Positions 1,378 through 13,482 of a stretch of 64,000 nucleotides of DNA are shown here, one piece after another. The notes beneath the pieces were generated by a model. That model saw nothing but the letters and a program-made list of their open reading frames with translations. It did not search any database and had not been told where the DNA came from. A program made the translations under genes and the position numbers. Where the stretch lies: the NCBI RefSeq assembly GCF_000026545.1, contig NC_011601.1; one strand, given 5' to 3'. Position 1 is the stretch's first letter, and every line of letters begins with the position of its first letter. Source of the DNA: Escherichia coli O127:H6 str. E2348/69. Its GTDB lineage: Bacteria > Pseudomonadota > Gammaproteobacteria > Enterobacterales > Enterobacteriaceae.

Positions 1378-2067
1378 TTAACCGTTAGTTAATTTTTCAA
1401 ACTCTTCACACCCGGTATCAAACCCTTCCATACAGCTCAGATTCAACCAGTGCAGCGCCTTTTGTTTGTTCTTCTCGATAAAACCCTCTTCACCGTTTAA
1501 GAACATCATTCCCGCCCAGTATTCGGAATAACCGGTTCGGGAAATCGCGGAGCTACGTTTGAAATACCAGGTTGCTTTGTCATCGTCGGCCTTAATGCCC
1601 ACGCCGTTGGCGTAAATCAAACCAAGCAGCATTTGGGCATCGACGGCAGAGTCGTTCTCCAGATCTTCCGAGGCGTTTTCTAACAGCGAAATCGCCTTTG
1701 GATAATCCGGTTTACCCGCTTGCGTATTTACCAGAATATGCGCCAGCGTTACTTCACCTTCTTTACTGCCCGCTTGCGCTGCTTTCTCGGCAAGCACTTT
1801 TGCTTGTGGATAGTCCAGACTGACCGGATTGGTGATTTTGATCTGCGCCAACAGCGCGCAGGCATCGGCATCACCGCTGTCGGCGGCTTTCTGTGCCCAA
1901 TATTCGGCTTTGCTCAAATCGCCGGAGCTAAACCAGCTGTCGGCAAGAAAATATTGTGCGCGTCGGTCTCCGGCCTCTGCTGCCTTTAAATACTGGCTGC
2001 CAGGCTCGGAGTCGTTCGCGTGGGCAAAGAATGTCAAAAATAACATCAAAGTGATAATTTTTTTCAT
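1378..2067 (-). CDS. yjcO: Sel1/TPR-like repeat protein with signal peptide
   Basis: Track ORF 1378..2121 begins at TTG; ATG at codon 19 (MKKIITLMLFLTFFAHA) gives a signal peptide followed by Sel1-like repeats. Confidence 0.85.
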   Translation of the reverse strand: MKKIITLMLFLTFFAHANDSEPGSQYLKAAEAGDRRAQYFLADSWFSSGDLSKAEYWAQKAADSGDADACALLAQIKITNPVSLDYPQAKVLAEKAAQAGSKEGEVTLAHILVNTQAGKPDYPKAISLLENASEDLENDSAVDAQMLLGLIYANGVGIKADDDKATWYFKRSSAISRTGYSEYWAGMMFLNGEEGFIEKNKQKALHWLNLSCMEGFDTGCEEFEKLTNG

Positions 2068-2177
2068 TTTGATAATGAAGTTTGGTAGGGGAGAGACAGT
2101 ATAAAGTGTTCGGGTGGACAAAAAAACAACTGTAAAAAGACCTGAAAGCAGAATGAATTAATGCAATGTCAGGTTTT

Positions 2178-2882
2178 TTAATCCATCCGATGTTCCCCCT
2201 TTTCCATGGCGTCGCGATCAAAAAATCGCTGAATTTTTCCCTCGGACATCAATGCCGCTCGATCAGACATATGCGCGATGACATCGGCATCGTGACTGAC
2301 CAGCAGATATGTCATTTGGTGTTCCAGCTTAAGTTGATTCAACAAATTAAGGATTTCCGCTTGTACCGACATATCCAACGCCGAGGTGGGTTCATCCAGC
2401 AGAAGAAGTTGTGGTCGTAACAACAGGGCGCGAGCAATAACCACACGTTGCCGTTGACCACCGGAAAGCTGGTGTGGGTAGCGACGAGCGGCGTCGAAAG
2501 GCAAGCCAACCTGTTCCAGTGCAGTCTGGACGCGTTTTTCTATTTCTCTTTCGCCACGAATTTTGAGTGGTTCAGCCAGCGTTCGCCACAGAGTATGATT
2601 GGGATGCAACGAGGCATAGGGATCCTGAAACACCATTTGCACATTGCGGCGGAGATCGCCCTGAAAACGCATTCCTGGTTTGATGGTGTGCCCAAACAGT
2701 GACACCTGACCGTGCCAGTCGCGCTGTAATCCAGCAATTACGCGCAAAATCGTGGATTTTCCGCAGCCTGATTCGCCAATTAAACTAAATGTCTCTCCGG
2801 CATTAACCGAAAAACTGGCGGCAGAAACTGCGGTTTTCTCAGCAAAAGTCACCTGTAAGTGATTAATTTCAACAATCGTCAT
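2178..2882 (-). CDS. ABC transporter ATP-binding protein (short NikE/DppF-like), last gene of accessory ABC operon
   Basis: Walker A GESGCGKST, signature LSGGQRQR, Walker B LLLLDEPTSALD; ATG start overlaps the upstream ATPase gene by 14 nt. Confidence 0.9.
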   Translation of the reverse strand: MTIVEINHLQVTFAEKTAVSAASFSVNAGETFSLIGESGCGKSTILRVIAGLQRDWHGQVSLFGHTIKPGMRFQGDLRRNVQMVFQDPYASLHPNHTLWRTLAEPLKIRGEREIEKRVQTALEQVGLPFDAARRYPHQLSGGQRQRVVIARALLLRPQLLLLDEPTSALDMSVQAEILNLLNQLKLEHQMTYLLVSHDADVIAHMSDRAALMSEGKIQRFFDRDAMEKGEHRMD

Positions 2883-3705
2883 GGTATTTCTCCGGCGTCA
2901 TTGCCGTCCTGTCCAGCGTCGGCAGCATCTGCCCGTAAGTTTGTGCATTTGGGCGGCAAGTCCACAGTGTGCGCGTGTAAGGATGCGTTGCTGTAGGTAG
3001 CGCAGCAGCGTGCATTTCATCCACCTTATTTCCCTGATACATCACCAGCACCCGATGGCAAAATTGGGCAACTAATGGCAGGTCGTGACTGATCAGCAAC
3101 ATTGCCATCTGACGTTGTTCACACTGGGTAACCAGCAGTTCCAGAATCTGATTACGCAGGCGCACATCCAGTGCTGATGTTGGCTCATCGGCAATCAATA
3201 CCCGGGGATCGTTGATGAGCGCAATTGCAATCATCACTCGCTGCCCCATGCCGCCAGAAAGTTCACGAGGATAGCTTTGCAGTACTCGCGTATTGAGGCC
3301 GACAGCCTGAATTGCGGTGTTTATTTTCTCTTCTTTCTCGCGGCGGTTCAGACGTTGATGGAGCGTAAGCGCCTCTTCCAGTTGCGCTTTTACTGTCTTT
3401 ACTGGATTAAGCGCGTAACGCGGATCTTGCAATACCATCGCGATATCGTTACCGCGCAACTGTTGCCATCCACGCGCGTTAAGGGTGAGTGCATCACGCC
3501 CCAGAATGTTAAGTGTGTCCGCGGTTACTACACCCGGTTTACGCACCAGCCCCATCAGGGCGCGGGCGGTCATGGACTTACCTGAACCCGACTCACCGAC
3601 CAGCGCCAGACGTTCATTGCCTAATGTAAAACTGACATTGTTGACGACCCGGGACTCCGGATAATCGACGCAGAGATTGTTGATACTAAGACGTGAGTCA
3701 GTCAT
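2869..3705 (-). CDS. ABC transporter ATP-binding protein (short NikD/DppD-like)
   Basis: Walker A GESGSGKS, signature LSGGMGQR, Walker B LIADEPTSALD; start taken at the internal ATG (MTDSRLSINNL), since the track's 20-codon upstream extension overlaps the permease gene. Confidence 0.85.
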   Translation of the reverse strand: MTDSRLSINNLCVDYPESRVVNNVSFTLGNERLALVGESGSGKSMTARALMGLVRKPGVVTADTLNILGRDALTLNARGWQQLRGNDIAMVLQDPRYALNPVKTVKAQLEEALTLHQRLNRREKEEKINTAIQAVGLNTRVLQSYPRELSGGMGQRVMIAIALINDPRVLIADEPTSALDVRLRNQILELLVTQCEQRQMAMLLISHDLPLVAQFCHRVLVMYQGNKVDEMHAAALPTATHPYTRTLWTCRPNAQTYGQMLPTLDRTAMTPEKYHDDC

Positions 3706-4531
3706 GTTGAGGCTCCAGAACATCGCGCAAGCCATCACCCAGCAGATTAAAGGCCAGACTGGCAATTAAGATAATTGCGCCGGGAGCGGCGGCAATCCAC
3801 CATTGATCAAAAATGACCTGCATACCGTCGGCGATCATGGCTCCCCATTCCGCCATTGGCGGGCGAGCACCAAGCCCAAGAAAACCCAGGCCAGCAGCCG
3901 CCAGAATGATACCCGCTAAATCCAGCGCCAGACGGACAATGGCAGATGGCAGGCACAATGGCAAAATATGACCAGCCAGCAGACGCCTGCCGCGGATGCC
4001 CATCATTTCTGCGGCGGCAAGATAATCACTGTGTCGCAGACGTTGGATCTCACTCCGTGCCTGACGCGCATAAGCAGGCCAGGTGGTTAATGCCAGCGCC
4101 AGTGCGCCGTTAACCAGCCCCGGCCCCAGCATGGCAACAAAAGCAAAAGCCAGAATTAAACGCGGCATTGACATTACTACGTCAGTAAAACGCATCAGCA
4201 CGCGTTCCAGCCAGCCGCCGTAGTACCCGGCTAAAATGCCAATCAGCAGACCGACCGGGAGTGTAATGATTGTCACCAATGCCACCAGCCCCAGTGCCGG
4301 GCGGCTGCCGTAGATTAAACGTGAAAGTAGGTCTCGCCCGTAACTGTCAGTGCCGAGCCAGTGCTGACGACTCGGTGCTTGTAACCGCGCCGCCGCATCC
4401 TGCCAGTTAGGATCGTGAGGTGCCAGCCACGGCGCGAAGAGCGCAATTAGCATCAATAACAGGATAATTATCAACCCGCAAAACGCGGCGGGTGAATGGC
4501 GTAAACGGCGTAAAAAGAGAAACATCGGCAT
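3698..4531 (-). CDS. ABC transporter permease (DppC/NikC-like)
   Basis: 277 aa hydrophobic multi-helix protein in operon position; ATG start. Confidence 0.88.
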   Translation of the reverse strand: MPMFLFLRRLRHSPAAFCGLIIILLLMLIALFAPWLAPHDPNWQDAAARLQAPSRQHWLGTDSYGRDLLSRLIYGSRPALGLVALVTIITLPVGLLIGILAGYYGGWLERVLMRFTDVVMSMPRLILAFAFVAMLGPGLVNGALALALTTWPAYARQARSEIQRLRHSDYLAAAEMMGIRGRRLLAGHILPLCLPSAIVRLALDLAGIILAAAGLGFLGLGARPPMAEWGAMIADGMQVIFDQWWIAAAPGAIILIASLAFNLLGDGLRDVLEPQHD

Positions 4532-5580
4532 CAGCGTAACCTCGGATCGGTCAGCCGGACCAGCAGGTCGGTTAAGTTATTTATCAACACAAAGCAGACG
4601 CCAATCAGCAGCGTTCCTCCCATGATTGCTGTGGTATCACCCGCGAAGAGCGCTGTAGTGAGGTAGCGCCCAATACCTGGCCATGAAAAGACGGTTTCTG
4701 TCAGTACCGCGCCTTCCAGCATTGATGTATAGGCGAGGGCGATAACGGTGAGTAAGGTGCCGCGAATGTTGGGTAAAACATGACGTAGCAAAATTGTCAT
4801 CTCGCTGGCCCCTTTGGCGCGCGCCAGCAGAATATATTCTTTATTCATTTCGCCAAGACAGACGGAACGAGTCAGGCGCGTAATACTGGCGAGCGAGAAG
4901 TACGCCAGTAATAAAACCGGAAGTATCAAATGGTTGATTGCATTGGTAAATGCCTCGCGATCGCCAGAAAGCCACGTATCAATCAGCGCAAATCCGCTGC
5001 GGGGTTCTATGGTGAATTGATAAATATCATCCAGCCTGCCCGGCCCGGCACTCCATTGCAGTCTGGCGTAGAACAGCGCCAGCATCAGCAGACCAAGCCA
5101 AAAAACAGGGACGGAATTTCCCAGTAGAGTTAATGTTCGCACGGTGAAATCCAGCGGAGAACCGACATAACGGGCGCAAAGTACACCCGCAATGACGCCG
5201 ACAACAGCACCGACAATAAGCGCCAACGTTGCCAGTTCAATGGTCGCCGGGAATGCTGATAGCAAGTCCTGGAGTACCGGTTGCCCGGTGGAGCTGGCGA
5301 TGCCCAGATCGCCGTGTGCCAGATTCATCAGGTAATGCCAGAACTGGACGGCTAACGGTTGATCCAATCCTAACTGGTGGCGTACCTGATCATAGGTGGA
5401 CTGGCTGGCGTGATCGCCAACGATTTGTAGTACGCGATCGACCGGTGAGAGAGCCGAAAGCGCAAAGGTAATCAGCAGCAGGCCGAGTAGCGTCAGAGCA
5501 ACGGTAAACAGCCCTTGCAACAGCGCGAGCAGAGGGCGTTTGCCTCGCCATCTCGCGCGAGTGGAAAAAACGACAGACAT
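4531..5580 (-). CDS. ABC transporter permease (DppB/NikB-like)
   Basis: Hydrophobic permease; start taken at ATG MSVVFSTRAR, as the track extends 31 codons upstream; stop overlaps the next gene's start. Confidence 0.85.
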   Translation of the reverse strand: MSVVFSTRARWRGKRPLLALLQGLFTVALTLLGLLLITFALSALSPVDRVLQIVGDHASQSTYDQVRHQLGLDQPLAVQFWHYLMNLAHGDLGIASSTGQPVLQDLLSAFPATIELATLALIVGAVVGVIAGVLCARYVGSPLDFTVRTLTLLGNSVPVFWLGLLMLALFYARLQWSAGPGRLDDIYQFTIEPRSGFALIDTWLSGDREAFTNAINHLILPVLLLAYFSLASITRLTRSVCLGEMNKEYILLARAKGASEMTILLRHVLPNIRGTLLTVIALAYTSMLEGAVLTETVFSWPGIGRYLTTALFAGDTTAIMGGTLLIGVCFVLINNLTDLLVRLTDPRLR

Positions 5581-5607
5581 GATCTTTCCATACAGTGATA
5601 AATCAGC

Positions 5608-5632
5608 GGCTGGCCTGCAATACAGGCCAGCC
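5608..5632 (-). other. Intercistronic stem-loop between binding-protein gene and first permease gene
   Basis: 10-bp inverted repeat ggctggcctg / caggccagcc with 5-nt loop, read directly. Confidence 0.5.
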
Positions 5633-5679
5633 CTGGTACCGCGCCCGGTAATATGGCTGGACGCGAGTTGCATACAGGG

Positions 5680-7248
5680 TTATTTGGTTACCTGATCAAA
5701 CCAGACCATATCGGCATTCAACCCTTGTTGATACCCCTGCACATTATCACGCATGACAATTTGCGTTTTGCCTTGATCAATAAAGACATACGGGGAACTA
5801 CGTTGTAGTTCTTGTTGCATTTTCTTATACAAATCAAGACGTTTAGCGCTATCAGGTTCAGCGATGGCCGCCAGCGTTTCTTTGTTCAGTTCCGGGATTT
5901 TCCAGCCGTTTAACCCGGCAACGGTGCTGGATTTGCCATCGTTATAGGCGAAAGAGCTGGCGTTGGAATGTGCGTCAAAATAATCAGGCAACCACATACG
6001 AATGGCCCCCTGATGCTGGTGGGCGCGAACGCGAGAGTAGACCTGACTCCCTGCGGCTGGCAGCAAATCAACTTTTACACCGCCCTGAGCAAAGCTGGCC
6101 TGAATTGACTGCGCGATGGTAATAAATGGCGGTTTATTTTCGACATCAAGCGTGAAGTGCGGGTCTTTGATTCCGGCTTTAGCGAGGATCTCTTTTGCTT
6201 TGGCTGGATTAAAGGTAAACGGTGTTTCTTCCAGTGCTCCAGGAAAGCCCACGGGCAGGAAACTTTGATGGGTAAAATATTGTCCTTTTAAGAGATTTTT
6301 GGTGATGCCGTCGTAATCGACCAACCAGCGAGCGGCCTCCCAGAACGCAGGATTACTCATCAGCGGGTTATCCTTGTTACCGGTATTGAAGGCCAGGTAG
6401 TTCTGTTCGGCGGAGGCAATGCTCATCACTTTTACGCCAGGTTTACCCTGTAATGCATCGATTTGATCGGCTCCCAGATCACGAGCCATATCAGCATCAC
6501 CTTGTTGGATCAGCAGGCGACGCGTTGCCGGATCGGGAACATTTTTGATGATGACGTTTTTCAGTTTCGGGGCGCCGGTTGGTGAGCTGGCGTTGGCTTC
6601 CATCACGATGGCCTGATGCGGTTGGTAAGTACGCATTTTAAACGCGCCGCTGCCAGCGGAATGCATCTTCAGCCATTCATTACCAAAGTCGTTATTTTTG
6701 GCGTTTGGCGCAACCAGCTTCTCGTCAACAATTGAGGCGATTGGTGTGGAGAGAATATTCAGTGCCAGCGCCGGGCTGACGTCGGCACTCCATTGCACCT
6801 GGACGGTATGGTCATCGATTTTCTTCAACTGGCTGGCGATATTTTCCGGCTGCCATCCCAGCACATTGAGAATAAACGCACCGGATTTATTCAGTGTGAC
6901 AGCCCGGACATAAGAGTAAATCACATCTTCCGGGCGTACCGGATTACCAGAGGCAAATTTCGCATCGCTTTTCAGTTTTATGGTTAGCGTTTTGGCTGCT
7001 GGGTCAGCCTGCCAACTTTCCGCCAGAATCGGAGTGATTTTCGTCGGATCATTACGGTCCGGTTGTACTACGCGTTGATACAGACTTGGTACAGTCTGAA
7101 TACTTGAGAGTTCATTAGCTTCTGCCGGGTCCAGACTCACAATATCATCCAGTCCCTGGGCTACAACCAACGTATTAGGCGGTGTAGCGGCAACGGTTGT
7201 GGCGGAAATTGTGCTTAAAACCAGTAAAGGTAATAGTTTTTTAATCAT
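5680..7248 (-). CDS. Periplasmic substrate-binding protein, family 5 (OppA/DppA/NikA-like)
   Basis: 522 aa with N-terminal signal peptide MIKKLLPLLVLSTISATTVAA; first gene of a five-gene ABC operon; ATG start. Confidence 0.9.
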   Translation of the reverse strand: MIKKLLPLLVLSTISATTVAATPPNTLVVAQGLDDIVSLDPAEANELSSIQTVPSLYQRVVQPDRNDPTKITPILAESWQADPAAKTLTIKLKSDAKFASGNPVRPEDVIYSYVRAVTLNKSGAFILNVLGWQPENIASQLKKIDDHTVQVQWSADVSPALALNILSTPIASIVDEKLVAPNAKNNDFGNEWLKMHSAGSGAFKMRTYQPHQAIVMEANASSPTGAPKLKNVIIKNVPDPATRRLLIQQGDADMARDLGADQIDALQGKPGVKVMSIASAEQNYLAFNTGNKDNPLMSNPAFWEAARWLVDYDGITKNLLKGQYFTHQSFLPVGFPGALEETPFTFNPAKAKEILAKAGIKDPHFTLDVENKPPFITIAQSIQASFAQGGVKVDLLPAAGSQVYSRVRAHQHQGAIRMWLPDYFDAHSNASSFAYNDGKSSTVAGLNGWKIPELNKETLAAIAEPDSAKRLDLYKKMQQELQRSSPYVFIDQGKTQIVMRDNVQGYQQGLNADMVWFDQVTK

Positions 7249-7422
7249 ATGCTTCCCAATCCCTAAAATTACTTTGAGGTTATTAATATGCTATCAGACG
7301 GGGGTTCGCTGCATTAATCGCGCCAGAATATCCCGTTAATAGAACGAGTTAAACGGTCGATGATTTCTCACCTTACCGAAATTTTGTTTATCAAATGTAA
7401 AGTATTATTACGTTAGGCCGCG

Positions 7423-7450
7423 ATGAGAATTGAGTAAAGATAATTCTCAT
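7423..7450. promoter_or_regulatory. Perfect 9-bp inverted repeat (atgagaatt N10 aattctcat) upstream of the ABC operon, candidate operator
   Basis: Palindrome read directly, about 175 bp upstream of the binding-protein start; no known regulator assigned. Confidence 0.3.
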
Positions 7451-7533: not shown

Positions 7534-7570
7534 ATAAAAAAATCCGGAAACAGAGAGTCGTTTCCGGATT
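7534..7570 (-). terminator. Rho-independent terminator of fdhF
   Basis: Stem aatccggaaac / gtttccggatt followed by a T-run on the minus strand, ~50 nt after the fdhF stop. Confidence 0.8.
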
Positions 7571-7622: not shown

Positions 7623-9770
7623 TTACGCCAGTGCCGCTTCGCGCAGGCGAGTTTTCAACTTGTTGTACTCGTCAATCACGTACTGCTCGGCGGCGCGCTG
7701 ATCGGCGATCGGCTCGACGCGCACGGCGCAGTATTTGTATTCCGGCGTTTTCGTAATCGGGCTTAAGTTTTCGGTAACCAGCTCGTTACAGGCACCAATC
7801 CACCACTGGTAGGTCATGTAAATCGCCCCTTTGTTCGGACGATCGCTGACCTGCGCACGGGTGATAATTTTGCCTTTACGCGAGTGCACCCAAACCAATG
7901 CCTCATCTTCAATACCCAGACGTTTGGCGTCTTCGGTATTGATTTGTGCGTAGCCAGGTTCATCAGCCAGCGCCGCCAGTGCCGCACAGTTACCGGTCAT
8001 CGAACGGCAAGAGTAGTGACCAACTTCACGCACCGTTGACAGTACCATCGGGTACTCGTCGGTGAGTTTGTCGATTGGCGCGACCCAGTCGCAGGTGAAG
8101 AACTGCGCCAGACCGTTCGGGGTATCAAACTTCTCTTTAAACAGATAAGAAGTCCCCTGATCGGCATCTGAAGTATCCCGGCAAGGCCACTGAATGAAGC
8201 CCAGTTCGCCCATTTTTTCGTAAGTCGCACCGTAGAAATCCGGGCACAGATGACGCAACTCATCCCAGATCTCCTGGGTGTTGTTGTAGTGCATCGGATA
8301 ACCCATACGGGTGGCGATTTCACTGATAATCTGCCAGTCCGTTTTCAGATCCCATTTCGGTTCAACCGCTTTGAAGAAACGCTGGAAGCCACGGTCAGCC
8401 GCAGTAAACACGCCTTCATGCTCGCCCCACGACGTTGACGGTAAAATAACATCCGCCGCCGACGCGGTTTTGGTCATAAAGATGTCCTGAACGATGACCA
8501 GTTCCAGATCTTCAAAGGCTTTACGTACTGCCGACAGCTCCGCGTCAGTTTGCAGCGGATCTTCGCCCATAATGTACGCGGCACGCACTTCGCCATGCGC
8601 TGCGCGGTGCGGCAGCTCGCTGATGCGATAGCCGGTATGAGCAGGCAGGCTTTCCACGCCCCAGGCTTTGGCGAATTTCTCGCGGTTAGCCGGATCTTTC
8701 ACGTACTGGTATCCCGGATACGTATCCGGCAGCGCGCCCATATCGCAGGCACCCTGCACGTTGTTCTGACCACGAACCGGGTTTACACCCGCATGCGGCT
8801 TACCGAGGTTACCAGTCAGCATCGCGAGGCTGGTCAGAGAACGCACGGTTTCCACGCCCTGGTAGAACTGGGTTACACCCATGCCCCACAGGATGGCGGC
8901 GCTTTTCGCCTGGGCATACATCCGCGCCGCCTGACGAATCTCACTGGCGCTGACGCCGGTGATATCTTCAACCGACTCCGGCGTGTAGCCTTCAACGATT
9001 TTACGATACTCTTCAAAGCCTTCTGTACGGGAAGCGACGAAAGCTTTGTCGTACAGGTTTTCTTCAATAATGACATGGCCCATCGCATTCAACAGCGCGA
9101 TGTTCGAGCCGTTTTTCAGTGCAATGTGCATGTCAGCAATGCGCGCGGTTTCAATTTTGCGCGGATCGCAGACGATAATTTTCGCCCCGTTACGTTTAGC
9201 GTTAATTACGTGATTCGCCACGATTGGGTGGGAATCCGCCGGGTTGTACCCGAAAACGAACACTAAATCGGTATTATCAATTTCGTTAATAGCATTGCTC
9301 ATTGCGCCATTACCGACCGATTGGTGCAGACCTGCAACCGATGGGCCGTGTCAGACACGAGCGCAGCAGTCAACGTTATTGGTACCAATAACGGCGCGCG
9401 CAAATTTTTGCATTACATAGTTGGTTTCGTTACCCGTACCACGCGAGGAGCCGGTCGTCTGGATGGCATCCGGACCGTACTTCTCTTTGATGGCGCTCAG
9501 GCGCTCGGCAACGTAATTCAGTGCCTCATCCCAGGAAACAGGTTCGAGTTTGCCGCCACGCTGGCGACGGATCATGGGGGTTTTCAGGCGCGGGGTCAGG
9601 ATCTGGGTATCGTTAATGAAATCCCAGCCATAATAACCCTTCAGACACAGGGTACCCTGGTTGGTTTTCCCCTGCGCTGCCTCCGCCCGGACGATTTTGC
9701 CGTTATCGACGACCAGGTTGATTTTGCAACCTGATGCGCAATAGGGGCAAACCGTGACGACTTTTTTCAT
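7623..9770 (-). CDS. fdhF: Formate dehydrogenase H, selenocysteine-containing molybdoenzyme
   Basis: Track ORFs 9351..9770 and 7623..9302 are in the same frame across a single TGA; 716 codons total; N-terminal Cys cluster CPYCASGCK. Confidence 0.95.
9305..9353 (-). other. In-frame UGA selenocysteine codon (9351..9353) with downstream SECIS region
   Basis: TGA flanked by ...DCCARV and HGPSVAGLHQSVGNG...; bacterial SECIS elements lie immediately 3' of the UGA. Confidence 0.85.
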
Positions 9771-9967: not shown

Positions 9968-11434
9968 TTATTTTTTCTCGACGACGGGAGCCGCCTGATA
10001 CCCGCCGCCCAGCGATTTCATCAACTGAATGCTTTGGATCACCCGGCGGCTGTCCAGCATCAGTAATGACATCTCTTCGGCAAGTACTGGCAACCGGGCT
10101 TCAGTGGCCTGTAAGCGGCTGGTTAAGCCGCGTTGATAGGCGGCCTCGGCAGCGCGCTGGGTGAAGCGCGTTGCTTCCACGCGTTCAGCCTGCATCTCTC
10201 GCTCGTCGTTGAGCGTTTGCAGACGCGTGCCGTTGACGGCAACGTCGCGCACCGCATTCAGCACTGACTGGTTGTAACGTTCAATCATCATGTTGCTGGC
10301 GGCGCGAATGCCTTCGAGATTGGCATTCAACCGTCCACCGTCAAACAGCGGCAATTTCAGACCCGGGATAAAGTTGAACTGGCGACTGGTTTTTTTGAAT
10401 AAGGTATCCAGGTGGATAGAATCCAGGCCGAAAAACGCTTTGATATCAAAGCTCGGGTAGAACAACGCCCGCGCGGAATCCACCTGATCTAATGACGCCT
10501 GAACATACCAGCGCATCGCTTGCAGATCCGGGCGTCTGGCGAGCAACTCATAAGAGAGTGTCGCCGGAATACCGGTCTGGACTCGTGGTAATGCCACCGG
10601 TTTGATCTCCGGCATATCGCTGGCTCCCGCGCCAATCAATGCGCGCAGAGATTCCCGCGTTTCAGTGATTTGCCCTTTGACGGCAGCAATTTGTTTATCG
10701 ACCGCCAGAATCTGTGCCCGCGCGCCGTGGAAAGGCACTTGCGCTTCCAGACCGTGCGCCACTTTACTCTGGTGCGCTTTCACCGCGTAATCAATCACAT
10801 CGCGAGTTTGTTCTAACAGATCGAGCATCTGATAGCTGGCCTGCATACTGTAATAAAGCTGCGCTACGCCCGTGGTCAGCGATAGCTCTACTGCTGCGGT
10901 TTCTGCCAGCGCGGCATTATGCGCGCCAATGGCGGCAGCAACCGCTGAGCGATGCACACCCCACAAATCGAGATCCAGTCCGGCAAACAAACCGACTGTG
11001 GCTTCCGTATAGTACGGCCCGTCCATCCCCAGTGCGGGCGCATCCATCGCATAAGGGCTTAAAAAGCCGTTCGCCGAGACACGTTGGCGGTTGAGCATCC
11101 CTAACGCTGCGACCTGTAATTGTGAACCGGCATCTAACAAATCGGCCTGCGACTGCGCTTTTTCTTCCCGCAGTTTCGCTTCGGCGAGGGTGTGTGAACC
11201 ACTTAGCGTCTGTTGGACCAGTGCATCCAACTGCGGGTCATTGAGTTGTTTCCACCACTGCGCCTGCGGCCAACCGGAGCTGGCAAGATGAATATCATCG
11301 GCCAGTTTGATTTGTTCCGGTTTGAGCTGTTGATGAGGCGCAGAATCCTTACGTACCAGGGCACAGCCGGAAATCAGCGTCGTGCTGCCGAGAATGCTGC
11401 ACAACAGCAGGCGTGAAAGTTGACGATTGATCAT
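9968..11434 (-). CDS. mdtP: Outer-membrane efflux channel (TolC/OprM family) of putative efflux pump
   Basis: 488 aa with lipoprotein-type signal (LISGCA); downstream of mdtO. Confidence 0.88.
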   Translation of the reverse strand: MINRQLSRLLLCSILGSTTLISGCALVRKDSAPHQQLKPEQIKLADDIHLASSGWPQAQWWKQLNDPQLDALVQQTLSGSHTLAEAKLREEKAQSQADLLDAGSQLQVAALGMLNRQRVSANGFLSPYAMDAPALGMDGPYYTEATVGLFAGLDLDLWGVHRSAVAAAIGAHNAALAETAAVELSLTTGVAQLYYSMQASYQMLDLLEQTRDVIDYAVKAHQSKVAHGLEAQVPFHGARAQILAVDKQIAAVKGQITETRESLRALIGAGASDMPEIKPVALPRVQTGIPATLSYELLARRPDLQAMRWYVQASLDQVDSARALFYPSFDIKAFFGLDSIHLDTLFKKTSRQFNFIPGLKLPLFDGGRLNANLEGIRAASNMMIERYNQSVLNAVRDVAVNGTRLQTLNDEREMQAERVEATRFTQRAAEAAYQRGLTSRLQATEARLPVLAEEMSLLMLDSRRVIQSIQLMKSLGGGYQAAPVVEKK

Positions 11435-13482
11435 TGCGTGGCTCCTTGTACCTGTTCCGTGGCGGGCGTTAATGCCGGGGCTGTCCAGTCTGGCAAGCGG
11501 GCGAAAAGCTGGCAGACGTGTTGCTCCTGTTTTAATAAGGTCGGCAGGATGGCCTGCGAGGCGGGTGTTTCTTCAAGCGTTATTTGAGGAGAACGGCTGA
11601 GTGCAGTTGCCAGACCGGCGGCGTATTTCTCCAGTGCGTCGGCAAACTGACCTGCTCTGTCCGGCTGTAGTGCGTTATCCAGAGCCTGCGCCGAGTTCCA
11701 GGTTGCATCCCAAGCGTGAAGAATATCGCGGCCCTGACGAATAACCGTTTGCGAACGTTCAATCAGTAAAGCGCGTTCTTCGCTGTCCAGTTGACGCTCC
11801 AGCGCCACGCGTTGGCACATCTCTTCACAGGCATTAAACGCCGCATGCAGACCTATGCGAATTTGCAGATAAGTGCGCAGAGCCGTGACTTCCTGCTGGC
11901 GTGGGATCCGCATTACTTTACTCAACATACCCAGCGCGCCAGCCAGTTTTTGCGGCAGCGTGCGCGCTTCACTTTCAGGCCAGACAAAGGTGTAAATCAC
12001 CGCGGACACCACGGTACCAATGATGATACCCAGGGCGCGATCGCGAATTTCCACCAGGTCGTACACCGGGCCAAAAACGTTTTCGAGCGTGGCGAGCGCG
12101 AAGGTGACCACCATCTGTGTGCCGATATAAGAAGAGCGTTCAGAGCTGGTGGCAATCCATGCGCCCAACAGGAAAATCGGTGCCAGCACAAACAGCAATT
12201 CGACAATATTGTCCAGCCAGGGCATGACCAGCAGCGTGAATAACAGCGCCAGAATTGCACCGCAGAAGGCACCGCCAAAACGCAGCGCCATTTTCTGATA
12301 CGACGAACCAACATTCGGGTTAGCGACGATCACGCAGGTCAGCATACAGGTGTGAATGCCTTCCCAGTCCACGCCGCTGTAGAAGGTGTAACAGATCAAA
12401 CAGGCGAGCAGCGTTTTTACCGCGTAGCGCATATAGTCTGGATTGGTAAAAGCGTCGGCGACCATTGATGGCGGTTTGGCGGCGGGCGTTGGCGGCGTAT
12501 TCGGGTCCATCTGACCCAGTTGCAATAACGTCTGGCAGATATTCTCCAGGTTACATTCCCGTGCCGCCATCGCTTCACTTTCACTGATCCGCCAGTCGCT
12601 TTGCCAGCACTGACCTTCGGTAATGGAATGCTGCAGCTTGTTGATTTCTGAAGCTAATTTTTGTCGGAATTCAATAATTGCCTGAGAATCAGCAAAAGAG
12701 GTGGGATCGTAGCGATTCAGCGTCGAGTAAATGTAGGTTACCGTTGTCACGCAGCTTTGCCACCATGCGCTCTGGGTTCGCCAGTTGGCATCGTCCGCGA
12801 GGCAAAAGACATTGAGTTTTTGCAGCGCCAGCGCCTCTCTTTCAATCCGCGTTTCGGGTAGCGGTGCGAGGCTGTCCGTCAGGTGGCTAATGGCATCATC
12901 AAGCCGATCATTAAGCGCCTGATGCATCTGCGTAATGGCACGACTGGGAAACCACAGCACGCCGATTAACGTCATCAGCAAGGTTGGATAGAGGCCAACA
13001 ACGATACACCAGAGCGTTAAGCGCACGACCACTTCCGGATAGTCGAGCATGGCGGGGAAGGTTTGCCCGTAAATAGCGACAATGGCGACGGCGAAAAAGA
13101 CCAGCCCCAACCGATGGGTGCGCATCAAAAACATACCGCCCATCAGGATCGGTCCGGCGATGATCAATCGGATCAACGGTTCGCCGTATGACCATTTGTA
13201 GATCAAAAACAGGCTGCCGATCTCCAGCATCGTGGCGACCACAAACAAGATCGCCACAAATTTGGTGTAAAACGCGTTGGACTGAATACCGTAAAACAGC
13301 ACTGCCAGCGATAACGCCACAAAAGGGATCTCAAAAGTCATCGAGATCAGAATCACCAGCAGGCAGCCTACCCAGAGTTGCATAGTCTGCGGCACGCGGC
13401 CTGGTCGCCGCTCGCTTAACTCTTCATGAAAGAACGCCAGCAGCCTGACCACCGGTAATGGCAGGGAGTTGAGCGCGCTCAT
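11431..13482 (-). CDS. mdtO: Inner-membrane efflux component (AaeB/fusaric-acid-resistance family)
   Basis: 683 aa polytopic membrane protein; 4-nt overlap with mdtP. Confidence 0.88.
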   Translation of the reverse strand: MSALNSLPLPVVRLLAFFHEELSERRPGRVPQTMQLWVGCLLVILISMTFEIPFVALSLAVLFYGIQSNAFYTKFVAILFVVATMLEIGSLFLIYKWSYGEPLIRLIIAGPILMGGMFLMRTHRLGLVFFAVAIVAIYGQTFPAMLDYPEVVVRLTLWCIVVGLYPTLLMTLIGVLWFPSRAITQMHQALNDRLDDAISHLTDSLAPLPETRIEREALALQKLNVFCLADDANWRTQSAWWQSCVTTVTYIYSTLNRYDPTSFADSQAIIEFRQKLASEINKLQHSITEGQCWQSDWRISESEAMAARECNLENICQTLLQLGQMDPNTPPTPAAKPPSMVADAFTNPDYMRYAVKTLLACLICYTFYSGVDWEGIHTCMLTCVIVANPNVGSSYQKMALRFGGAFCGAILALLFTLLVMPWLDNIVELLFVLAPIFLLGAWIATSSERSSYIGTQMVVTFALATLENVFGPVYDLVEIRDRALGIIIGTVVSAVIYTFVWPESEARTLPQKLAGALGMLSKVMRIPRQQEVTALRTYLQIRIGLHAAFNACEEMCQRVALERQLDSEERALLIERSQTVIRQGRDILHAWDATWNSAQALDNALQPDRAGQFADALEKYAAGLATALSRSPQITLEETPASQAILPTLLKQEQHVCQLFARLPDWTAPALTPATEQVQGATQ

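Follow-up and report, generated by a model that had tools for sequence, protein, structure and literature searches.

The 64,000-nt stretch of the Escherichia coli O127:H6 strain E2348/69 chromosome analysed here (contig NC_011601.1; hereafter the window) carries five co-oriented genes on the minus strand between yjcO and fdhF. They are predicted to form an operon for a binding-protein-dependent ATP-binding cassette (ABC) importer of the peptide/opine/nickel family (TC 3.A.1.5). The reading favoured here, with moderate confidence, is that the operon specifies an intact importer of this class for an amine-bearing ligand and results from an ancient insertion shared by E. albertii and E. coli phylogroup B2. 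The operon is so far uncharacterised, yet of an ordinary transporter class, and nothing was found in the literature under the RefSeq protein accessions, the locus genes, or B2 and E. albertii terms. Coordinates of the features are given in Table 1.

Composition of the operon and family placement of its products

The five open reading frames (ORFs) between positions 2178 and 7248 are intact, and their translations correspond to a substrate-binding protein, two permeases and two ATPases. A 6.4-kb query across the locus matched the E2348/69 record NZ_CP059840.2 at 100% identity. RefSeq gives the E2348/69 genes generic names only (ABC substrate-binding protein, two permeases, two ATP-binding proteins), and the ORFs and this annotation together confirm the five co-oriented importer genes that the first-pass annotation had described from the DNA alone. 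The genes are tightly packed downstream of the binding-protein gene. The permease 1 stop codon and the permease 2 start codon overlap as ATGA, permease 2 and ATPase 1 overlap by 8 nt, and the two ATPase genes by 14 nt.

The binding protein begins with a Sec-type signal peptide, lacks a lipobox Cys in its translation, and matches PF00496 in Pfam (identical-protein cluster P0001). Orthologues of permease 1 include PF19300 and PF00528, and those of permease 2 include PF12911 and PF00528. Both ATPases have intact Walker A, Walker B and signature motifs, which read GESGSGKS, LIADEPTSALD and LSGGMGQR, respectively, in ATPase 1. PF00005 (ABC_tran) is the sole Pfam match in the two ATPases (E = 1.5e-25 and 1.6e-35), and the oligo_HPY C-terminal domain (PF08352) was detected in neither, though ATPase 1 keeps a remnant 'HPYT' motif. 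PF00496 and the family-5 fold of the binding protein, the similarity of the permeases to Dpp, Ddp, Nik and Opp permeases, and the two ATPases with intact motifs thus point to the importer class named above. By homology, the periplasmic protein would capture a small ligand and dock on a heterodimeric permease, and the two minimal ATPases would drive import.

All five proteins matched Dpp, Ddp, Nik, Opp, Gsi and Cnt models in NCBIfam, none near an equivalog cut-off. For the binding protein, the top match by E-value was nikA (TIGR02294) with 109.6 bits against a cut-off of 393, followed by DppA (NF043070; 107 bits against 1005) and GsiB (105 against 594), and CntA also matched. The two permeases scored 240–280 bits against the Dpp, Ddp, Nik and Opp permease models, including ~241 bits, below the cut-off, for permease 1 against Opp2B/DppB. 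Among the K-12 paralogues, the binding protein is closest to DdpA (29% identity, 157 bits), ahead of DppA (114 bits), GsiB (90), NikA (77) and OppA (59). Permease 1 is about equally related to DdpB (43%) and DppB (39%), and the best K-12 paralogues of permease 2, ATPase 1 and ATPase 2 are DdpC (45%), DppD (39%) and DdpF (45%), respectively. The BLASTP and hidden Markov model comparison of the binding protein, suggested earlier as a check, therefore returned no equivalog and placed DdpA closest in K-12. The protein is no near-identical copy of a characterized component, its best named relative being 29% identical.

The best solved structure by sequence profile is that of DppA (1dpe/1dpp/8z1y; E = 1.6e-45), and the profile search of the PDB showed that no DdpA structure exists. 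A Foldseek search with an AlphaFold model of the binding protein retrieved family-5 binding proteins at E ~1e-32, with GbpA and DppA as top matches at 20–22% identity. It did not discriminate between DppA, GbpA, NikA, AapF and the opine binders, all at 20–22% identity.

Orthologues of the binding protein, 72–87% identical and at 87% in K. michiganensis, were found in Kluyvera, Klebsiella oxytoca/michiganensis, Raoultella, Kosakonia, Yokenella, Enterobacter spp., Buttiauxella, Yersinia mollaretii and Proteus. The source records name these only as 'ABC transporter substrate-binding protein' or 'peptide/nickel transport system', and the Proteus orthologue has no NikA annotation. The so far uncharacterised cassettes of these Enterobacterales have the same five genes, the same order and the same short ATPases as the E2348/69 operon; they differ in chromosomal site from genus to genus (bet, psp-tyrR, fes-fepA, proP-patA, argI-nrdD and opp-ychE). 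Serratia is an exception in that it has an orphan, 77%-identical binding protein between argI and pyrBI, without permease or ATPase genes. In Y. mollaretii, a full cassette occupies the corresponding argI-side position. More widely, the operon is one among a very large transporter family (475 cluster representatives at E <= 1e-30).

In some E. coli records, ATPase 2 and YjcO are annotated as one joined 351-aa 'ATP-binding cassette domain-containing protein', presumably because of a frameshift or read-through over the 110-bp spacer in a few B2 genomes.

Polarity, age and distribution of the insertion

In K-12, BL21, O157:H7, O104:H4 and the other non-carriers, the yjcO–fdhF spacer is uniformly 93 bp with no gene inside. 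Thus, the two genes are directly adjacent in K-12, as the first-pass annotation had stated, and the site that holds the five importer genes in E2348/69 is empty there. In K-12, Salmonella and Citrobacter, the fdhF stop codon is followed by a shared hairpin, ACAGCCTCC-loop-GGAGGCTGT with a T7 run, and then by the 5' untranslated region (UTR) of yjcO. In B2 strains and E. albertii, 5.5 kb is placed between the fdhF stop codon (+5 nt) and this ancestral terminator, the 14-bp hairpin core of which is gone. Because K-12, Salmonella and Citrobacter share the hairpin that the insertion disrupted, the empty site represents the ancestral state and the occupied one arose in a single derived event; hence, the term 'inserted' used at first had the right polarity. 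Loss from an ancestrally occupied site in non-B2 E. coli was also considered and was rejected, as the empty site keeps the terminator hairpin of the Salmonella/Citrobacter type. The fdhF terminator that is now found within the insert is conserved in E. albertii.

The gene order mdtP–fdhF–(five genes)–yjcO–gltP also holds in E. albertii NBRC 107761, where the five genes occupy the same place. Between B2 and E. albertii, nucleotide identity is 89–94% for the ABC genes and 86–96% for the flanks, and the synonymous divergence (dS) is 0.25–0.44 for the five genes and 0.17–0.74 for the flanking genes. As dS is similar in both, the divergence time of the block is about that of the neighbouring core genes, and recent transfer is excluded by these values. 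The ratio of nonsynonymous to synonymous divergence (dN/dS) is 0.03–0.11 for the five genes, which are under purifying selection. A single ancient 5.5-kb insertion into the fdhF terminator region, kept by purifying selection in E. albertii and B2, would account for the locus.

The first part of yjcO and its 5' UTR include derived substitutions common to B2 and E. albertii (23 sites, as compared with 10 over the final ~265 columns of the alignment). The species tree is instead followed at gltP, fdhF and mdtP, where 93, ~70 and ~180 sites, respectively, unite B2 with K-12, against a handful. The shared substitutions at the 5' end of yjcO are consistent with one haplotype of origin for B2 and E. 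albertii, and an ancient exchange between the ancestors of the two, or a long-lived polymorphism, would explain them. When one genome per species was scanned for exact peptide words, no further Escherichia species yielded the binding protein, a result that is provisional because such a scan depends on exact word matches.

No integrase, transposase or insertion sequence (IS) is annotated at the E2348/69 block, which consists of the five ABC genes only. Around the 5,477-bp segment, the search for flanking repeats, direct or inverted, for terminal repeats and for a target-site duplication found none, and in the Rfam scan the junctions were free of tRNA and other RNA genes. The annotation and the repeat search therefore agree with the initial view that integrase, IS and direct repeats are lacking. 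The accompanying claim that the genes are more GC-rich than their neighbours was wrong: the GC content is 52.2% in the block and 51.8% in the window, and the GC content at third codon positions (GC3) is 0.48–0.58 in the five genes, below the 0.55–0.67 of gltP, yjcO, fdhF and mdtPO. The block shows none of the hallmarks of a mobile genomic island (integrase, IS, tRNA gene, repeats or deviant composition).

The survey of presence and absence proposed in the first-pass annotation was made on 5,426 complete "E. coli" genomes, and 1,043 of them (19%) carry the block essentially at full length. Identity is at least 99% in every copy but one, and each of the 1,042 covers at least 80% of the query, with one IS1 insertion among 60 sampled rows as an exception to intactness. 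The outlier (91.6%) is from strain 14EC007 (NZ_CP024131.1), labelled E. coli in RefSeq. Across 13 kb, the sequence of this strain agrees at 99.5% with the type strain of E. albertii and at ~92% with E. coli. The label is evidently mistaken for what is an E. albertii genome, in which the ATPase 2 gene is frameshifted.

Phylogroup B2 is the source of most extraintestinal pathogens (ST131, ST73, ST95) and also includes the enteropathogenic (EPEC) strain E2348/69 and Nissle 1917. The named carriers of the block include E2348/69 and O25b:H4-ST131, which are established members of B2. Hence, the block is apparently fixed in one E. coli lineage, B2 by the identities of its carriers. Identity at mdtOP was tried as a marker of B2 and failed because the E2348/69 allele is rare (4 genomes at least 99% identical). 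Of the initial description as a strain-variable accessory locus, strain variability held; a sporadic occurrence did not, given the ancient same-site insertion common to E. albertii, the purifying selection and the apparent lineage-wide fixation. The block is a clean presence/absence marker. A conserved, selected nutrient importer that is apparently fixed in B2, is otherwise shared only with E. albertii and is lacking in the laboratory reference strains could plausibly be a metabolic trait specific to the lineage.

It is very improbable that the genes are a decaying, functionless remnant hitch-hiking in B2. The lack of a known phenotype and of a linked regulator or enzyme, and the absence of the block from most E. 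coli, would fit such a remnant. However, dN/dS is low over a dS of ~0.3, the 1,042 E. coli copies are nearly full length with one IS1 insertion in the 60 sampled rows, a frameshift was seen in the E. albertii-like strain 14EC007 alone, and the binding protein is conserved across Enterobacterales at the level given above.

Ligand class of the binding protein

The binding protein was aligned with DppA, OppA, NikA, GsiB, DdpA, its orthologues and Paraburkholderia homologues, and its residues were compared using DppA/OppA precursor numbering. Asp422 aligns with DppA D436 and OppA D445, which form a salt bridge to the free alpha-amino group of the ligand, DppA Arg383 being the residue that binds the peptide carboxylate. 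Asp422 is invariant in all orthologues, the Paraburkholderia homologues and DdpA, and is replaced by Pro in NikA and Ser in GsiB. NikA residues H416, R137 and R97 correspond to Gly438, Ile170 and Ser122 in all orthologues. The titles of PDB entries corroborate these residue roles (8z1z, 'DppA R383D+D436R'; 3qim, NikA His416 essential). Because Asp422 is invariant and the NikA residues are absent, a ligand with a free amine is favoured and nickel disfavoured. Small peptides, or other compounds derived from amino acids that carry a free amino group, are the best-supported ligand class and, with moderate confidence, the most likely one.

The first-pass annotation had left the substrate open between a peptide, nickel and another metal chelate, and the substrate indeed could not be read from the sequence. 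It had also likened the layout to nikABCDE in view of two ATPases without long C-terminal extensions. NikABCDE, the nickel-(L-His)2 importer, likewise has five genes, ordered A-B-C-D-E. The shortness of the ATPases, for which Pfam gives PF00005 only, bears the likeness out (278 and 234 aa, as compared with 254 aa in NikD and 268 aa in NikE). The sequences do not, every subunit being nearer to Ddp or Dpp than to Nik, and the nickel residues, a nikR gene and a NikR box being absent here. A second importer of nickel or a nickel chelate (metallophore) of the NikABCDE/CntABCDF type, supplying nickel for hydrogenases, would give meaning to the adjacency to fdhF, the formate dehydrogenase of the formate-hydrogenlyase complex. 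Such an importer would also agree with ATPases that, like NikD/E and CntD/F, lack oligo_HPY, and with nikA as the top NCBIfam match by E-value beside a match to CntA. This explanation is nevertheless improbable. The nikA score is far below its cut-off and tied with those of DppA and GsiB, NikA is the fourth-best K-12 paralogue of the binding protein, and NikA His416, Arg137 and Arg97 are not conserved. In addition, nikR is absent from the annotation, a NikR operator and a Fur box were not found, and the cassettes of other genera adjoin unrelated genes (bet, psp, opp, argI). Nickel or a metallophore is thus an unlikely substrate.

DppABCDF, the dipeptide/haem importer, resembles the operon in that its DppB and DppD rank first or joint first among the paralogues of permease 1 and ATPase 1, respectively, and in the conservation of Asp436. 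It differs in the low identity of DppA (21–24%) and its low model score (107 against 1005), in the Arg383 loop that is missing here, and in the shortness of the ATPases here.

DdpXABCDF, the putative D,D-dipeptide importer of K-12 with the D-Ala-D-Ala dipeptidase DdpX, shares the five-component architecture and the order A-B-C-D-F. Identities are 29% (A), 43% (B), 45% (C), 37% (D) and 45% (F), which is paralogue level and far below that of orthologues. The amine-anchoring Asp and the deletion of the Arg383 loop are common to DdpA and the binding protein. Unlike in the Ddp system, ddpX is absent here, the chromosomal site is different, and the ATPases are shorter and lack oligo_HPY (278 and 234 aa, as compared with 328 and 308 aa in DdpD and DdpF). 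In Paraburkholderia caffeinitolerans and P. kururiensis, homologues of the operon (binding protein 40%, permeases ~50% identical) lie directly downstream of a genuine ddpX (306 bits, the cut-off being 176), the product of which is 49% identical to E. coli DdpX. The order there, ddpX–binding protein–permease–permease–ATPase–ATPase, mirrors ddpXABCDF. By tblastn, ddpX was found neither at the window locus nor at any examined orthologous locus in Enterobacterales. The ddpX link was also considered as a general trait of the subfamily, which wider sampling of relatives at 56%, 47% and 40% identity did not bear out.

In E2348/69 (NZ_CP059840.2, 2493134–2496153) and Nissle 1917, ddpXABCDF, which in K-12 lies between osmC and dosP, is absent. 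In both strains dosP and osmC are adjacent, and dosC is cut to a fragment.

Among the 5,426 genomes, 4,283 have ddpX-ddpA, 1,116 have a clean ddp-empty junction, and 1,043 have the five-gene block. The counts for ddp and the block are nearly complementary at the level of genome totals, and this may simply mirror phylogroup structure. It could be supposed that the operon is a functional substitute for DdpABCDF, importing D-Ala-D-Ala or D,D-dipeptides in B2 and E. albertii and induced under nitrogen limitation or in stationary phase. DdpA as the closest K-12 paralogue, the gene order led by ddpX in Paraburkholderia, and the lack of ddp in E2348/69 and Nissle 1917 together with the complementary totals would agree with this. 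So would a sigma-54-like element upstream of the operon, the match quality of which is about that of the TGGCATGAGATCTGCA element 5' of K-12 ddpX, a gene that uses a sigma-54 promoter. The proposal is nonetheless doubtful, since ddpX is missing from every examined Enterobacterales locus, identity to DdpA is only 29%, other subfamily members adjoin unrelated genes, the complementarity may have the phylogenetic cause just named, and the count of sigma-54-like matches in the window is not above chance. D-Ala-D-Ala or a related cell-wall-derived dipeptide is therefore a specific but weak candidate ligand.

A more far-reaching version, in which B2 and E. albertii swapped systems for scavenging D,D-dipeptides or short peptides, lacking ddpXABCDF and keeping a dipeptidase-free importer under dyad and sigma-54-type control, is rather unlikely. 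If true, the importer would take up a specific cell-wall- or host-derived peptide, such as D-Ala-D-Ala salvaged straight into murein synthesis, and would contribute to the distinctive gut and extraintestinal fitness of B2. The reciprocal absence of ddpXABCDF offers a concrete hypothesis on the substrate that can be tested.

Import of a non-peptide amino-acid conjugate (an opine-, Amadori- or signal-like compound, or glutathione), as by MoaA, AgaA, AapF and GbpA, is likewise rather doubtful. In the profile searches against the PDB and in the fold searches, GbpA, AapF, MoaA and AgaA score near DppA; a 40%-identical relative adjoins a PfkB kinase and a 56%-identical one an aminotransferase; and in the Klebsiella clade a GNAT acetyltransferase gene is divergent from the operon. 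However, linkage to catabolic genes is absent in Escherichia, the similarities are all 20–25% and allow no preference to be derived, and Asp422 has no discriminating value, as it would suit every ligand that bears a free amine.

Several observations weigh against the favoured reading, i.e. an intact importer of an amine-bearing ligand, inserted long ago and now shared by E. albertii and B2. The evidence on the substrate is all indirect. The DppA loop with Arg383 is deleted here, as it is in DdpA; DdpA itself is only a putative D,D-dipeptide binder, and is 29% identical. The AlphaFold model, built from a 10-sequence alignment, has a pLDDT of 71 and is poor over residues 421–455, the pocket loop. 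The ddpX linkage is limited to the two Paraburkholderia species sampled, and the subfamily relatives at 56%, 47% and 40% identity, on short metagenome contigs, have neighbours other than ddpX (OsmC and an aminotransferase for the 56% relative, a PfkB kinase for the 40% relative); the subfamily is probably functionally mixed. No regulator or enzyme is consistently linked to the cassette at ~20 Enterobacterales loci. Finally, the B2 label of the carriers rests on the known identities of E2348/69 and ST131, and the assignments of expression and promoters are inferred.

Genomic context was tried as a clue to the substrate and gave none, as the ~20 Enterobacterales loci adjoin unrelated core genes. 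Recurrent neighbours occur only in the Klebsiella clade (a divergent, weakly typed GNAT gene, a class-III aminotransferase and a YdfG-like short-chain dehydrogenase/reductase) and are uninformative.

Predicted regulatory elements and flanking loci

The spacer between fdhF and the binding-protein gene is 374 bp. When 20 upstream regions were compared by eye, the motif TTTAC(G/T)-N17-TAACGT was found to recur 5' of orthologous binding-protein genes in many genera. The operon is probably transcribed from its own promoter, the E2348/69 candidate being of sigma-70 type (Table 1). A perfect 9-bp dyad overlaps the candidate −35 element and spacer and lies within a 66-nt stretch in which B2 and E. albertii are 100% identical, as compared with 86% identity over the whole spacer region. 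The dyad matches no nameable regulator site and is possibly an operator or upstream activating sequence (UAS). In the sigma-54-like element, GG/GC is kept in E. albertii despite changes in the spacer.

The dyad lies ~125 bp upstream of the −24/−12 positions of the sigma-54-like element, a layout that resembles an enhancer-binding-protein UAS and promoter.

For the NikR operator GTATGA-N16-TCATAC, 18 matches with at most 3 mismatches were found against 18.65 expected, none of them convincing in the promoter. Neither a Fur box nor an NtrC-type site was found in the pattern searches for regulator boxes. The spacer between the binding-protein and permease 1 genes includes a stable hairpin (RNA fold −42.5 kcal/mol, z = −3.2), which would probably set an excess of binding-protein mRNA, as in other ABC operons.

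Table 1. Positions of the operon, its predicted control elements and flanking features in the window.
Feature	Position	Strand	Description
Inserted segment	2142..7618		5,477 bp, absent from K-12-type genomes; from junction alignment of B2, E. albertii, K-12, Salmonella and Citrobacter
Substrate-binding protein	5680..7248	-	522 aa; family 5 (SBP_bac_5), predicted periplasmic; from ORF and translation
Permease 1	4531..5580	-	349 aa; DppB/DdpB-like; PGAP start
Permease 2	3698..4531	-	277 aa; DdpC-like
ATPase 1	2869..3705	-	278 aa; from translation and Pfam
ATPase 2	2178..2882	-	234 aa; minimal nucleotide-binding domain; from translation and Pfam
Candidate sigma-70-type promoter	7410..7438	-	TTTACT-N17-TAACGT; from upstream regions compared by eye
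Perfect 9-bp dyad	7423..7450	-	ATGAGAATT-N10-AATTCTCAT; overlaps candidate -35 and spacer
Sigma-54-like element	7310..7325	-	TGGCGCGATTAATGCA; 62-77 nt 5' of ATG; from pattern search
Stable hairpin	5608..5632	-	In the 99-nt binding-protein/permease spacer; from terminator-like scan
Remnant of ancestral fdhF terminator	2120..2141	-	T7 run and TCTTTTTACAG flank kept
Present fdhF intrinsic terminator	7534..7570	-	Within insert; AATCCGGAAAC...GTTTCCGGATT then T7; from terminator scan
yjcO	1378-2067		Flank of operon
fdhF	7623-9770		Flank of operon; in-frame selenocysteine TGA splits the gene into two ORFs
fdhF SECIS	9304-9358		From Rfam scan

At seven loci of Klebsiella, Raoultella and Enterobacter, a conserved palindrome, TTATGC-N7-GCATAA, is located ~120–150 nt 5' of the binding-protein gene, upstream of the shared promoter motif. 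At most of the seven, a gene for a 230-aa GNAT acetyltransferase is transcribed divergently. Neither the palindrome nor the GNAT gene is present in Escherichia.

On the far side of yjcO, the gltP–yjcO spacer includes a REP-type element at 1309–1373, matched by Rfam naRNA4 below threshold (44.5 bits against a gathering score of 59.5). The length of this spacer is strain-variable, being ~225 bp longer in strain GF3-3 and 530 bp in K-12.

On the far side of fdhF, the E2348/69 allele of mdtP-mdtO (9968–13482) is rare, only 4 of the 5,426 genomes being at least 99% identical and the remainder at most 97.9%. In contrast, the ABC block 2 kb away is at least 99.4% identical in ~1,040 genomes. The highest dS against E. 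albertii (0.74) is that of mdtP, and the pattern at mdtPO resembles that of a local import by recombination or of a locus that evolves fast.

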